Shown here piece by piece: positions 1 through 55,069 of a DNA stretch of 64,000 nt (its first letter is position 1; every line of letters begins with the position of its first letter). Below the pieces are notes generated by a model, which searched no databases, was not told the origin of the DNA, and worked only from the letters and a program-made list of their open reading frames with translations. The translations under genes were made by a program, and so were the position numbers. This DNA is from Escherichia coli (GTDB lineage Bacteria; Pseudomonadota; Gammaproteobacteria; Enterobacterales; Enterobacteriaceae), in NCBI RefSeq assembly GCF_003334765.1, contig NZ_QOWT01000019.1; one strand, written 5' to 3'.

Positions 1-75
1 TTATCGTGAGAGTAATTCATCGGCACGTTAAATCATATCAGGCGTAATACCACAACCCTTAAGTTAGCGCTTATG
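1..75. mobile_element. Terminal segment of an IS186-like insertion sequence (element continues beyond the left window edge)
   Basis: Bases ~51-75 read CAACCCTTAAGTTAGCGCTTATG, which I recognise as the IS186 terminal inverted repeat; it abuts GGGATGTTTCCCCCAC, the GC-rich palindromic IS186 hotspot in the lon promoter. Recalled from memory, not searched. Confidence 0.55.
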
Positions 76-91
76 GGATGTTTCCCCCACA

Positions 92-104
92 TTCAACGCC
101 GAGA
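92..104 (-). promoter_or_regulatory. Remnant -35 region of the lon sigma32 heat-shock promoter, separated from its -10 by the insertion
   Basis: Minus strand reads TCTCGGCGTTGAA followed by GTGGGGGAAACATCCC; the expected CCCCATATA -10 is replaced by IS-like sequence. Confidence 0.4.
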
Positions 105-111
105 ATAGAGG

Positions 112-145
112 AAAAATTAAAGGGGAGATAAAATCCCCCCTTTTT
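112..145 (-). terminator. Intrinsic terminator downstream of clpX (hairpin usable in both directions)
   Basis: GGGGAGATAAAATCCCC stem-loop flanked by an A-tract on one side and T5 on the other, 30-60 bp past the clpX stop. Confidence 0.6.
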
Positions 146-173
146 GGTTAACTAATTGTATGGGAATGGTTAA

Positions 174-1448
174 TTATTCACCAGATGCCTGTTGCGCTTC
201 CGGCTTGCCATAAATCAGCAACGGTTTGCTTTGACCATCAATTACCGACTCGTCGATAACCACTTTTTCGACGTCTTCCATGGACGGCAGATCGTACATG
301 GTATCGAGCAGTGCGGCTTCTACGATGGAACGCAGGCCACGGGCACCGGTTTTACGCGCCATCGCTTTCTTAGCGATAGCATCCAGCGCCTCGTCACGGA
401 ATTCCAGATCCACGCCTTCCAGATTAAACAGCGCCTGATACTGCTTGGTCAGGGCGTTTTTCGGCTCTTTGAGGATCTGAATCAGAGCTTCTTCGCTCAG
501 TTCATTCAACGTTGCGACAACCGGCAGACGACCAATAAACTCAGGGATAAGACCAAACTTGATCAGATCTTCCGGTTCAACCTGCGCCAGCAGCTCGCCT
601 TCGCTTGCTTTGTCGGACTTCGCTTTTACCGTCGCGCCAAAACCAATGCCGGAGCCGGTTTCTACACGGTGGGAAATCACTTTATCCAGACCGGCAAACG
701 CACCGCCACAAATAAACAGGATCTTAGAGGTATCAACCTGCAAGAATTCCTGCTGCGGATGTTTACGCCCACCTTGCGGTGGAACAGCAGCTACCGTACC
801 TTCGATCAGTTTCAACAGTGCCTGCTGTACGCCTTCACCGGAAACGTCTCGGGTAATGGACGGGTTGTCTGACTTACGAGAAATCTTGTCGATTTCATCG
901 ATGTAGACAATACCACGCTGTGCTTTCTGGACATCGTAGTCGCATTTCTGCAACAGCTTCTGAATGATGTTTTCAACGTCTTCACCCACATAACCGGCTT
1001 CGGTCAGTGTAGTCGCGTCGGCCATGGTGAACGGAACATCCAGCAGGCGCGCCAGCGTTTCAGCCAGCAGCGTTTTACCGGAACCGGTCGGACCGATCAG
1101 CAGAATGTTACTTTTGCCCAACTCGACGCCATTGCTGGTATCGCCGTTGCGCAGACGTTTGTAATGGTTGTATACCGCGACCGCCAGCACTTTTTTCGCC
1201 TGTTCCTGGCCGATAACGTAATCGTCCAGGTGGTTGCGAATTTCATGCGGCGTCGGTAGCGCACTGCGTTCACGATGCGGTGCAACTTCTTTAATCTCTT
1301 CGCGAATGATGTCGTTACATAAATCAACACATTCGTCGCAGATATACACGGATGGACCGGCAATCAGCTTGCGCACTTCATGCTGGCTTTTGCCGCAAAA
1401 AGAGCAATACAGCAATTTGCCTGAGCCATCTTTGCGTTTATCTGTCAT
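174..1448 (-). CDS. clpX: ATP-dependent Clp protease ATP-binding subunit ClpX
   Basis: 424-aa ORF; N-terminal zinc-binding cysteines (CSFCGK...CDEC), Walker A GPTGSGKT; directly downstream of clpP. Confidence 0.97.
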
Positions 1449-1573: not shown

Positions 1574-2197
1574 TCAATTACGATGGGTCAGAATCGAATC
1601 GACCAGACCGTATTCCACCGCTTCAGGGGCGGAAAGGAAGCGATCGCGCTCGGTATCACGTTCAATCTGTTCTAATGATTGACCCGTATGAAGCGCCATA
1701 AGTTCATTCATGCGCCCTTTAACTTTCAGAATTTCACGGGCATGAATTTCGATATCGGTCGCCTGGCCCTGGTAGCCGCCCAACGGTTGGTGAATCATCA
1801 CGCGCGAATTCGGCAGGCAAAAACGTTTACCTTTTGCCCCTGCGGTCAGCAAGAAAGCGCCCATCGAGGCCGCCTGGCCCATACAGATGGTGCTGACATC
1901 AGGCTTGATAAACTGCATGGTGTCATAGATAGACATCCCGGCAGTGATCACCCCGCCTGGGGAGTTAATGTACAGATAGATATCTTTTTCTGGGTTTTCC
2001 GCTTCCAGGAACAGCATCTGCGCCACAATCAGGTTAGCCATGTGGTCTTCAACCTGGCCAGTCAGAAAAATGACGCGTTCCTTAAGTAGACGAGAATAGA
2101 TATCAAAAGAGCGCTCACCGCGTGAGGTCTGTTCAATGACCATCGGCACCAGCGCCATATGGGGTGCAAAGTTATCTCGTTCGCCGCTGTATGACAT
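1574..2197 (-). CDS. clpP: ATP-dependent Clp protease proteolytic subunit ClpP
   Basis: 207-aa ORF; serine protease motif GQAASMGA; clpP-clpX operon arrangement. Confidence 0.97.
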
Positions 2198-2275
2198 TTC
2201 CGTCTCCTGGATAAAATTGAAAAAACCTGCTGTACCGATTGTAACCTTATGGACGGATTATCAGCTAGTCCCTGT

Positions 2276-2306
2276 GTTATGGGTACGGCATCACCATATT
2301 TCAAGC
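2276..2306 (-). promoter_or_regulatory. Candidate sigma32 heat-shock promoter of clpP
   Basis: Minus strand reads CTTGAAA, ~15 nt spacer, CCCATAAC, about 80-110 nt upstream of the clpP start; matches the sigma32 consensus. Confidence 0.5.
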
Positions 2307-2376
2307 ATAACAATCTTTTGTTGTTACGCTAACACCGAAAGAGGCTTTTCGCACGGTTCCATGCAAAATTCATGAC

Positions 2377-2408
2377 AAAAAAAAGCCCACCACCTGGCGG
2401 TGACGGGC
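2377..2408 (-). terminator. Intrinsic terminator downstream of tig
   Basis: GC-rich imperfect hairpin (GCCCGTCACC/GGTGGTGGGC) followed by T8 on the minus strand, ~35 nt past the tig stop. Confidence 0.7.
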
Positions 2409-2442
2409 CTTTGTGCGAATTTAGCGCGTTATGCTGCGTAAA

Positions 2443-3750
<1,308 letters not shown>

Positions 3751-4001
3751 TCAAAAAATCACAGTGCTCGGTCAACTCTTACCCCGCAAGCACAGGTTGT
3801 TGGCTTCGCGGAACCGGGATGTTCTTATAATCAATCACATTCCCTGTTACCAGAATCATCCCGAAAGCATTCAAATAGGACGCGGCATTATAGCGGCATC
3901 ACTTTTATGAGTCGAGAACGGTTATTGCGCGCTGTCGCGTATTTTTTCACAATTCCCGGGCAATTTTCGTCTGAATGCTGGGCAAAAAGCGCAAAATCCA
4001 G

Positions 4002-4027
4002 ACAAAACAAAACGGCCCGCAGGCCGT
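4002..4027 (-). terminator. Intrinsic terminator downstream of bolA
   Basis: ACGGCCCGCAGGCCGT hairpin followed by a T-rich run on the minus strand, ~60 nt past the bolA stop. Confidence 0.65.
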
Positions 4028-4084
4028 TTTTCATAAAATCTTTAGCAACATACTGGAAAAGCGCCGACAGTTGCAAATGCGTTT

Positions 4085-4402
4085 TTACGCGATGCTTCCT
4101 GCTCCACGACAGGGAGGAGAGGCAAAGACGGTGTCCTGCAACCCTTCCCACTCCTTAATAGTGTAAGTATGCAGAGCCAGCGCATGAACGGTAGTAGAGA
4201 GTTCCTCCGCTAAAGTACTGTAAATCATTCGATGACGATTCAGAAAACGTTCACCCGTAAAACGATCGCTGACCAGCACAACTTTAAAATGGCTTTCAGA
4301 GCCGGCTGGGACATTGTGACGATAGCTTTCATCCACTACTTCGAGGAATACGGGTTGGAACGCCGCCCTTAATTTTTCTTCTATCCGCTCACGTATCATC
4401 AT
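4085..4402 (-). CDS. bolA: DNA-binding transcriptional regulator BolA
   Basis: 105-aa product starting [10 protein letters not shown]; start placed at the internal ATG of the 116-aa track ORF. Confidence 0.9.
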
Positions 4403-5328: not shown

Positions 5329-6804
5329 ATGTCCAGTCAATATTTACGTATTTTTCAACAGCCGCGTTCAGCCATATTGCTGATCCTGGGTTTTGCTTCC
5401 GGGCTACCGCTCGCCCTGACATCCGGTACCTTACAGGCCTGGATGACGGTCGAGAATATTGATCTCAAAACCATTGGTTTCTTCTCTCTGGTAGGCCAGG
5501 CTTACGTTTTTAAATTCCTCTGGTCACCGCTGATGGACCGCTACACGCCTCCATTTTTTGGGCGGCGACGCGGTTGGCTGCTCGCCACGCAAATCCTGTT
5601 ATTAGTCGCCATTGCGGCGATGGGTTTTCTCGAACCAGGCACCCAACTCCGCTGGATGGCGGCGCTGGCGGTGGTGATCGCTTTTTGCTCTGCCTCCCAG
5701 GATATTGTCTTCGATGCGTGGAAAACCGATGTGCTCCCGGCAGAAGAACGTGGTGCGGGCGCGGCAATCAGCGTTCTGGGTTACCGTTTAGGGATGCTGG
5801 TTTCCGGCGGCCTAGCCCTGTGGCTGGCAGATAAATGGCTGGGCTGGCAGGGCATGTACTGGTTGATGGCGGCGCTGTTGATCCCCTGTATTATCGCGAC
5901 GTTGCTTGCACCAGAACCGACCGACACCATTCCTGTGCCAAAAACGCTGGAACAAGCGGTTGTTGCACCTCTGCGAGATTTCTTTGGTCGCAATAATGCC
6001 TGGCTTATTTTGCTTCTTATCGTGCTGTATAAGCTGGGCGACGCATTCGCCATGAGCCTGACAACCACGTTTTTGATTCGCGGCGTCGGGTTTGATGCGG
6101 GTGAAGTAGGCGTGGTTAACAAAACGCTTGGCTTACTAGCGACCATTGTTGGCGCATTGTACGGTGGGATTTTGATGCAGCGCCTGTCACTGTTCCGGGC
6201 ACTGCTGATTTTCGGCATTTTACAAGGTGCGTCTAACGCCGGTTACTGGCTGCTGTCGATTACTGATAAGCATCTCTACAGCATGGGCGCAGCCGTCTTT
6301 TTCGAAAACCTCTGTGGCGGGATGGGCACATCAGCCTTTGTCGCGCTGTTAATGACGCTATGTAATAAGTCATTTTCCGCTACTCAATTTGCCCTGCTCT
6401 CAGCGCTTTCTGCTGTAGGGCGAGTTTATGTCGGCCCCGTGGCGGGTTGGTTTGTTGAAGCACACGGCTGGTCGACATTCTATCTATTCTCCGTCGCCGC
6501 TGCCGTACCAGGGCTTATTTTGCTGCTGGTTTGCCGCCAGACGCTTGAATATACACGAGTAAATGACAACTTTATCTCCCGTACCGCATATCCGGCAGGT
6601 TATGCCTTTGCCATGTGGACACTGGCGGCGGGCGTCAGCCTGTTGGCCGTGTGGTTACTGCTATTGACGATGGACGCGCTGGATTTGACGCACTTCTCTT
6701 TCCTGCCTGCTCTGCTGGAAGTCGGGGTTTTAGTCGCCCTTTCTGGCGTCGTGCTTGGTGGTTTGCTGGATTATCTGGCGCTACGAAAAACGCATCTGAC
6801 GTAA
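5329..6804 (+). CDS. ampG: Anhydromuropeptide permease AmpG (MFS transporter)
   Basis: 491-aa polytopic membrane protein; immediately downstream of yajG. Confidence 0.95.
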   Translation: MSSQYLRIFQQPRSAILLILGFASGLPLALTSGTLQAWMTVENIDLKTIGFFSLVGQAYVFKFLWSPLMDRYTPPFFGRRRGWLLATQILLLVAIAAMGFLEPGTQLRWMAALAVVIAFCSASQDIVFDAWKTDVLPAEERGAGAAISVLGYRLGMLVSGGLALWLADKWLGWQGMYWLMAALLIPCIIATLLAPEPTDTIPVPKTLEQAVVAPLRDFFGRNNAWLILLLIVLYKLGDAFAMSLTTTFLIRGVGFDAGEVGVVNKTLGLLATIVGALYGGILMQRLSLFRALLIFGILQGASNAGYWLLSITDKHLYSMGAAVFFENLCGGMGTSAFVALLMTLCNKSFSATQFALLSALSAVGRVYVGPVAGWFVEAHGWSTFYLFSVAAAVPGLILLLVCRQTLEYTRVNDNFISRTAYPAGYAFAMWTLAAGVSLLAVWLLLLTMDALDLTHFSFLPALLEVGVLVALSGVVLGGLLDYLALRKTHLT

Positions 6805-47577: not shown

Positions 47578-47605
47578 GTTATAGTCTCGGTGCTCATTAC
47601 TTATT

Positions 47606-47695
47606 GCCGGATGCGGCGTGAACGCCTTATCCGCCCTACGCGGTTCTGGCACATTTTGCAGGCCTGATAAGACGCGGCAAGCGTCGCATCAGGCA
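47606..47695. repeat. Pair of REP elements between convergent araJ and mak
   Basis: GCCGGATGCGGCGTGAACGCCTTATCCGCCCTAC and GGCCTGATAAGACGCGGCAAGCGTCGCATCAGGC. Confidence 0.8.
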
Positions 47696-47719
47696 TGATG
47701 CGCCAATTGCCTACGTTTT

Positions 47720-53998: not shown

Positions 53999-55069
53999 GT
54001 AAAGCGCCAAATCTGCCGATTTCAACCACTCACGATAGTGACTCATTTGTGGGTTCAGCGGCGCAACCCCCACACTAATCCGTAAAGTTACCTGTGGCGT
54101 ATTCGGCAAACGTAATGTATTTAGCCCTTCATGCACCCGTAACATGGCGGTAATGGCGCTCTCAGCTGGCGTACCGGACATGATTACTGCAAACTCATCG
54201 CCGCCAAACCGACCAATCACATCGCTACCGCGCAGGGTAATTTGTAACTGTCGGGTAAGCGCCACAATCGCTTCATCGCCCACATCATGGCCCCAGGTAT
54301 CGTTGATGCTCTTGAAATGGTCGATATCGATAATCAGTAACGTTGCATCGCGATTATGCCGCCGACAGTTATCAAATTCATTGCGTAACATAGTTTCCCA
54401 ATGACGTCGGTTATACACGCCCGTCATGCCGTCGCGGGTACTCATGACCTGCAACCTGCGTTTATGTTCCGCCAGTTTGGTTGCCGTCTGGTAGCTGACC
54501 CAGCCAAACAGCAGAGGATAAATGACAATAATGGGAAGGGAGAGCCACCATTCCAGCGGCGCACTATTGAACGACACGGTAATGCCCGTCAGCTCGAGGG
54601 TGACAAGGCAGGAAACCACCATCAACACCAGACCCGCGACAAACAGACGGGGGCCGCCTGCCCCCATCAAATTCAGACACATAATCATCAACATCGCGGT
54701 GGAAGGCAGCACGTTTACGCCCATTACGCCTACCCACATTCCCGCTAATACTGCATCGGTTTTTAAGTTGTAAATTTCCCGGCTAAGCGGATCGACGGCC
54801 CTGCTCGCTATCTGCCAGGCTAAATGCGGCCAGACGAACGCCCAGCCGACCAACACCAGCCACCACCAGCCCGGCGGCGGGTGTGAAACCAGCGTTGAAG
54901 CAATCGGTAAGAACATGCCAGCCAGGCCAACCGCACGGGGTAGTCTGACGCGACGGGCGAAGCGCAGCCCGGACCGCTGATGTTCGTTTTGAGGAGTTAA
55001 AGGAGGTTCCTCCCCGTGCGCCGCCGCTTTTTTGAAAAAGTTTTCATCATTCATTATTTTTGGGAACAT
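53954..55069 (-). CDS. dgcC: Diguanylate cyclase DgcC (AdrA / YaiC)
   Basis: 371-aa ORF; N-terminal multi-TM domain; GGDEF active site RFGGDEFAV. Confidence 0.95.
   Translation of the reverse strand: MFPKIMNDENFFKKAAAHGEEPPLTPQNEHQRSGLRFARRVRLPRAVGLAGMFLPIASTLVSHPPPGWWWLVLVGWAFVWPHLAWQIASRAVDPLSREIYNLKTDAVLAGMWVGVMGVNVLPSTAMLMIMCLNLMGAGGPRLFVAGLVLMVVSCLVTLELTGITVSFNSAPLEWWLSLPIIVIYPLLFGWVSYQTATKLAEHKRRLQVMSTRDGMTGVYNRRHWETMLRNEFDNCRRHNRDATLLIIDIDHFKSINDTWGHDVGDEAIVALTRQLQITLRGSDVIGRFGGDEFAVIMSGTPAESAITAMLRVHEGLNTLRLPNTPQVTLRISVGVAPLNPQMSHYREWLKSADLALYKAKKAGRNRTEVAA

Follow-up and report, generated by a model that had tools for sequence, protein, structure and literature searches.

The clpX-lon spacer of this Escherichia coli chromosome breaks off from its familiar sequence before lon is reached, which raises the questions of what has been joined to the lon -35 element, what this would mean for lon expression, and whether the chromosome belongs to the lineage in which such an arrangement is best known. 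These questions were addressed in a 64-kb window, by which we mean the whole stretch of DNA analysed (64,000 nucleotides). The orientation of the window is opposite to that of the usual K-12 map. Given that clpX (174..1448; intact, 424 aa, no internal stop, from sequence and annotation), clpP (1574..2197, annotation) and tig (2443..3741, annotation) all lie on the minus strand, the spacer between clpX and lon corresponds to 173..1, with lon itself expected left of position 1. Within this spacer, a terminator scan detected an intrinsic-terminator-like hairpin for clpX at 143..119 on the minus strand, consisting of an 11-pair stem and a T-rich tail. The left edge of the window is confirmed to lie inside an IS186 copy within the lon promoter hot spot.

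The identity of the element is established by its terminus. The minus-strand sequence of positions 1..75 is identical at 75/75 positions to nt 1-75 of MG1655 IS186, the transposase-proximal (left) end of the element; this identity test spans the 75 nt inside the window, the other 1,264 nt lying left of position 1. At 75..53 (minus strand) the window carries an exact match to the 23-bp IS186 terminal inverted repeat, CATAAGCGCTAACTTAAGGGTTG, which is identical to both ends of the annotated MG1655 copy. Even when 3 mismatches were tolerated, this 23-mer occurred once in the 64-kb window, and 100 shuffles of the sequence gave 0 matches. The presence of an IS186 terminus at the lon hot spot is not attributable to chance. 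In MG1655 (NC_000913), IS186 is annotated at 608007-609351, with inverted repeats that bound 608010-609348 (1,339 bp), and its gene insL2 is annotated as 'IS186/IS421 transposase'. The opposite end of the MG1655 element agrees with window 75..1 at 35/75 positions and has only the 23-bp repeat in common with it. Further inside the element, the transposase start ATGAATTACTCTCACGATAA, with its ATG at 20, provides six codons (MNYSHD) and 2 nt (20..1, minus strand) before it runs off the left edge. This reading frame is co-directional with clpX and lon, and an identical CDS start is annotated in record CP097884. The full transposase, taken from comparator genomes with the same junction, matches the IS4 family model NF033592 (133 bits, cut-off 115) and Pfam DDE_Tnp_1 (PF01609, 3.6e-26).

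The position of the insertion relative to the lon promoter can be read from genomes in which the site is empty. MG1655 and strain H3 both have an uninterrupted spacer, ...GTTGAATGTGGGGGAAACATCCCCATATACTGACG..., in which the empty site is GGGGGAAACATCCCCATATACT; here TATACT is found 18 nt after TTGAAT, overlapping CCCCATAT. From established promoter knowledge, we take TTGAAT to be the lon -35 and CCCCATAT and TATACT to be the overlapping sigma32 and sigma70 -10 elements. Ungapped collinearity of the window with the MG1655 and H3 spacers stops exactly at position 75, beyond which the sequence is that of IS186. The -35 hexamer TTGAAT is retained at 96..91 (minus strand), split from its -10 and from lon, and the expected -10, CCCCATATACT, was not found in the window after TTGAAT. 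Since the empty site is intact in MG1655 and H3, IS186 parts the lon -35 from its -10.

The G/C-rich IS186 hot spot GGGGGAAACATCCC lies immediately at the junction (88..75, minus strand), and comparison with the empty site identifies GGGGGAAACATCC(C) at 75..88 (minus strand) as its retained half. By reference to the same-junction comparators, the target-site copy is the 11-bp GGGAAACATCC at 76..86 on the minus strand (alternatively 10 bp, 76-85), and a second copy is expected beyond the element. The empty site of MG1655 and H3, GGGGGAAACATCCCC, fits the IS186 target consensus GGGG(N6/N7)CCCC as quoted in PMC6925257. Elsewhere in the window there is one further potential IS186 target, GGGGCCGCCTGCCCC at 54650-54664, the sole intact GGGG(N6/7)CCCC site and an unoccupied one; about one such site is expected by chance.

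The preliminary description, made from the sequence alone, had recognised an IS186 terminal inverted repeat running off the left edge in place of the expected lon -10, with the -35 element and the hot spot still present. All of this stands: the repeat belongs to a 75/75 match to annotated IS186 and is unique in the window, the transposase reading frame is cut at position 1, and positions 1-75 are not collinear with the uninterrupted K-12 clpX-lon spacer. As IS186 is a multi-copy repeat, a repeat-induced misjoin of an IS186 end to clpX could also produce a junction of this kind, and one comparator assembly (FELIX_MS533, discussed below) does contain an odd join. However, the breakpoint coincides with the known hot spot to the exact base, half of the target is retained, and the identical breakpoint is present in several independently assembled complete genomes. 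An assembly artefact is thus very improbable.

We turn to the lineage of the chromosome. The lon promoter::IS186 allele of E. coli B was reportedly the subject of work by saiSree, Reddy and Gowrishankar in 2001 (J Bacteriol 183:6943). B strains are Lon-deficient owing to IS186 in the lon promoter (PMC3446290, PMC7377907). The preliminary description had identified the junction in the window with this arrangement, stated that it lowers lon expression and suggested that the chromosome is of the B lineage. The lowering of Lon by this type of insertion is supported by published work (PMC4618355, PMC3446290), but the assignment to B fails on both orientation and background. The reading has a basis, in that the lon::IS186 alleles of REL606 and BL21 share with the window the same element (1,339 bp, 0 differences), hot spot, clpX-side breakpoint and separation of -35 from -10, and on the clpX side no difference appears before the end of the 23-bp inverted repeat. 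REL606 and the B genomes follow the window to position 53, the end of this repeat, and then diverge. The IS186 transposase gene of REL606 lies on the strand opposite clpX and lon and reads away from lon, whereas that of the window reads towards lon; in a direct BLAST comparison, the part of the REL606 copy with which window 1-77 aligns is the end nearest lon. The element of the window is thus turned around in comparison with every B-derived record, REL606 and BL21 included: in REL606 and 40-odd B derivatives the site is the same but IS186 faces the other way, and all the B derivatives listed share the REL606 orientation and divergence point. Four BL21 derivatives (CP084683, CP083274, CP083273 and CP081489) match 238/260 nt of a B-type junction query and diverge about 30 nt inside the element past the repeat.

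The flanking haplotype also argues against a B chromosome. Over 64 kb, the window has 523 mismatches to REL606 (about 0.8% different) and 22 differences from MG1655, with which it is fully collinear. The B-specific structural markers are missing: the REL606 2.4-kb island between yajR and cyoE is absent from the window, as is the REL606 IS1 adjoining rdgC, and tsx and acpH, which are pseudogenes in REL606, are intact. Taken together, orientation and flanking haplotype have already refuted the reading of this junction as the B lon::IS186 allele on a B-lineage chromosome, and we assign that reading a vanishingly small probability.

Eleven of the 22 differences from MG1655 are clustered in ampG, and there is in addition a difference in REP copies. 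The ampG cluster comprises 11 SNPs in 480 bp (window 5460-5940) within 25 kb of surrounding sequence that is otherwise identical to MG1655; it looks like a small recombination patch, and the same ampG allele occurs in natural isolates such as strain H3. In the araJ-mak spacer (window ~47600-47700), the REP/BIME-type repeat of the window is longer than that of MG1655 by about 90 bp, with a few substitutions nearby. This strain, isolated from human faeces in Mexico, has an empty site and matches the window without a difference from 75 to at least 6563. More generally, the records whose flanks are identical come from natural isolates (human, pig and poultry), all of them without the insertion. 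Judging from bit scores, no position in 76-25000 separates the window from IS-free isolates, whereas IS-bearing strains differ from it at 11-13 positions; no record identical to the window across the junction was found among 5,426 complete E. coli genomes. On the evidence of its sequence, the host chromosome is that of a K-12-like, phylogroup-A-type strain of natural type rather than that of a B strain. Given that its closest sequenced relatives carry an empty site, the insertion in the window is probably a recent event at a known hot spot, separate from the other sequenced cases.

How IS186 is arranged at this position in other genomes bears on what lies beyond the window edge. An IS186 repeat abuts this lon spot in 56 of the 5,426 complete E. 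coli genomes. The B orientation is found in 49/56 records, about 40 of them B-lineage laboratory strains and the rest including JM109, HB101, TUM24566, NDM6, B-1109, XH2172 and DX6. Among these, the laboratory strains JM109 (CP117962), HB101 (CP178859) and TUM24566 (CP188161) combine K-12-type flanks with a lon-site IS186 in the B orientation, so orientation alone is not diagnostic of lineage. The orientation of the window is found in the other 7/56 records, which represent six strains: CP097884, CP097881, FAHZZU7007, H32 (two records), 2020N08-094 and FELIX_MS533. Five of these six strains contain a complete 1,339-bp IS186 flanked by a duplication of 10-11 bp (GGAAACATCC or GGGAAACATCC), followed by an intact -10 and lon. 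The duplication is 11 bp in CP097881, FAHZZU7007, H32 and 2020N08-094, and also in REL606 with its other orientation; it is 10 bp in CP097884. CP097884 and CP097881 are 'MG1655' records from the same laboratory, and their target duplications (loci 6024-6035 and 3524-3536) are one G apart, which could reflect either two independent insertions or a homopolymer error.

The sixth strain, FELIX_MS533 (CP137696; locus 2186-4260), has the exact clpX-IS186 junction of the window, but beyond its IS186 comes the sequence that borders the resident 609-kb copy on the entD side. Essential genes would be lost in a simple deletion of 459-608 kb, and a translocation or misassembly is the more likely origin of this join. 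Because FELIX_MS533 has the junction with no adjoining lon, the junction alone does not prove that lon is adjacent. The IS186 end in the window could in the same way mark a larger IS186-mediated rearrangement (deletion, translocation or inversion through recombination with a second IS186 copy), with lon not directly beyond; PMC6307192 also cites a paper by Nicoloff and Andersson (2013) whose title mentions translocation of lon. The five other strains with this junction are nevertheless simple insertions with lon adjoining, and the 64 kb on the other side of the junction retain the MG1655 order throughout. These comparisons make a rearrangement in the window unlikely. In view of the entD far side in FELIX_MS533, a simple insertion with lon directly beyond IS186 is likely but not certain.

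We consider it highly probable that IS186 transposed into its preferred G/C-flanked target between the lon -35 and -10 elements of a K-12-like strain and that Lon was lowered as a result. According to this model, IS186 (IS4 family, 1,339 bp, DDE transposase) would have inserted in the G/C-flanked lon promoter target, with the clpX-side junction kept in the window; for a simple insertion, the far end, left of the window, would read CAACCCTTAAGTTAGCGCTTATG-GG(G)AAACATCCCCATATACT-lon. The -35 would then be shifted by about 1.34 kb from the -10, the transcription start and lon. Such a displacement would be expected to destroy both the heat-shock and the housekeeping promoter of lon and to cause Lon protein to fall, as promoter anatomy and the literature both suggest. 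Loss of Lon would in turn stabilise RcsA, leading to mucoidy; SulA, leading to filamentation after DNA damage; MarA and SoxS, leading to low-level multidrug resistance; and IS transposases, leading to more transposition. Published observations agree with several of these steps. In K-12 (NCM3722 derivatives), spontaneous insertions arise at this single site in either orientation (PMC3045373), and macrophage-evolved MG1655 clones with the insertion are mucoid, show more IS mutagenesis and revert when the element excises precisely (PMC3861542). Stabilisation of MarA and SoxS upon Lon loss gives low-level multidrug resistance (PMC6307192).

The orientation of the element in the window would allow a different outcome, namely that a genuine insertion leaves Lon largely unaffected, owing to transposase read-through or to a hybrid promoter formed by the retained -35 and the IS end. 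By inspection only, TCCCATAA, positioned after TTGAA with a 13-nt spacer, keeps 5/7 specified positions of the sigma32 -10 CCCCATnT. In addition, transposase transcription would be directed towards lon, and a promoter/terminator scan of CP097884, read on the lon strand from the end of the transposase gene to the beginning of lon, found no strong terminator-like site there and none at the far end of the element. Given that the transposase reads towards lon and that a strong far-end terminator was not detected, some read-through expression of lon is conceivable. In contrast, neither the junction nor the element contained a promoter-like site in a sigma70 consensus scan. Moreover, a single selection for lon promoter mutations yielded insertions in either orientation (PMC3045373), and Lon protein was strongly reduced on western blots of MG1655 folA-replacement derivatives with the insertion, for which the orientation of the element is unstated (PMC4618355). 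Substantial residual or heat-inducible lon expression therefore appears unlikely, and an insertion of little consequence for Lon improbable.

A more elaborate scheme can be envisaged in which IS186 insertion and precise excision act as a reversible Lon switch in a wild K-12-like strain, affecting mucoidy, drug tolerance and transposition rate, while the retained -35 and TCCCATAA place the transposase under residual heat-shock control and supply lon by read-through. We regard this scheme as quite improbable and prefer an insertion that simply lowers Lon.

If Lon is lowered as we propose, the strain from which this DNA derives is predicted to be Lon-deficient, which would be useful for strain annotation. 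Expected traits include mucoidy, sensitivity to filamentation, low-level multidrug resistance based on stabilised MarA/SoxS, increased IS activity and improved yields of unstable proteins. The locus also has a bearing on how lineages are assigned. On the clpX side, the two orientations cannot be told apart until the 23-bp repeat ends. Finding IS186 at lon is therefore not enough to assign a lineage, which has to be judged by the flanks and by what follows the repeat.

The lon hot spot, its use in both orientations and its effect on Lon are already known from publications, and the window is most usefully compared with these earlier cases. The spontaneous K-12 plon::IS186 insertions (PMC3045373, PMC4618355, PMC3861542) are at the same site as that of the window. 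The window is, however, not any of these K-12 genomes, as it has the 11-SNP ampG patch and differences common to natural isolates. The two 'MG1655' records from Brisbane, CP097884 and CP097881, reproduce the junction of the window base for base in a K-12 background; these two records, the best full-length hits to the window, depart from it at 11 positions of the first 25 kb, every one of them in ampG, where they carry the K-12 allele. The clinical isolates FAHZZU7007, H32 and 2020N08-094 agree with the window in junction and orientation; their IS186 is complete, with an 11-bp duplication and lon following it, and about 12-13 positions differ from the window in the first 25 kb. Because these isolates differ from the window in their flanks while IS-free isolates are identical to it, sequence comparison does not indicate common descent of the insertions. 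Finally, the resident IS186 of MG1655 (608010-609348, by entD) is identical in sequence and occupies the same type of target, GGGGAGTAATCCCC, with a 10-bp duplication, but it lies at another location and disrupts no known promoter, whereas the copy in the window separates the lon -35 from its -10.
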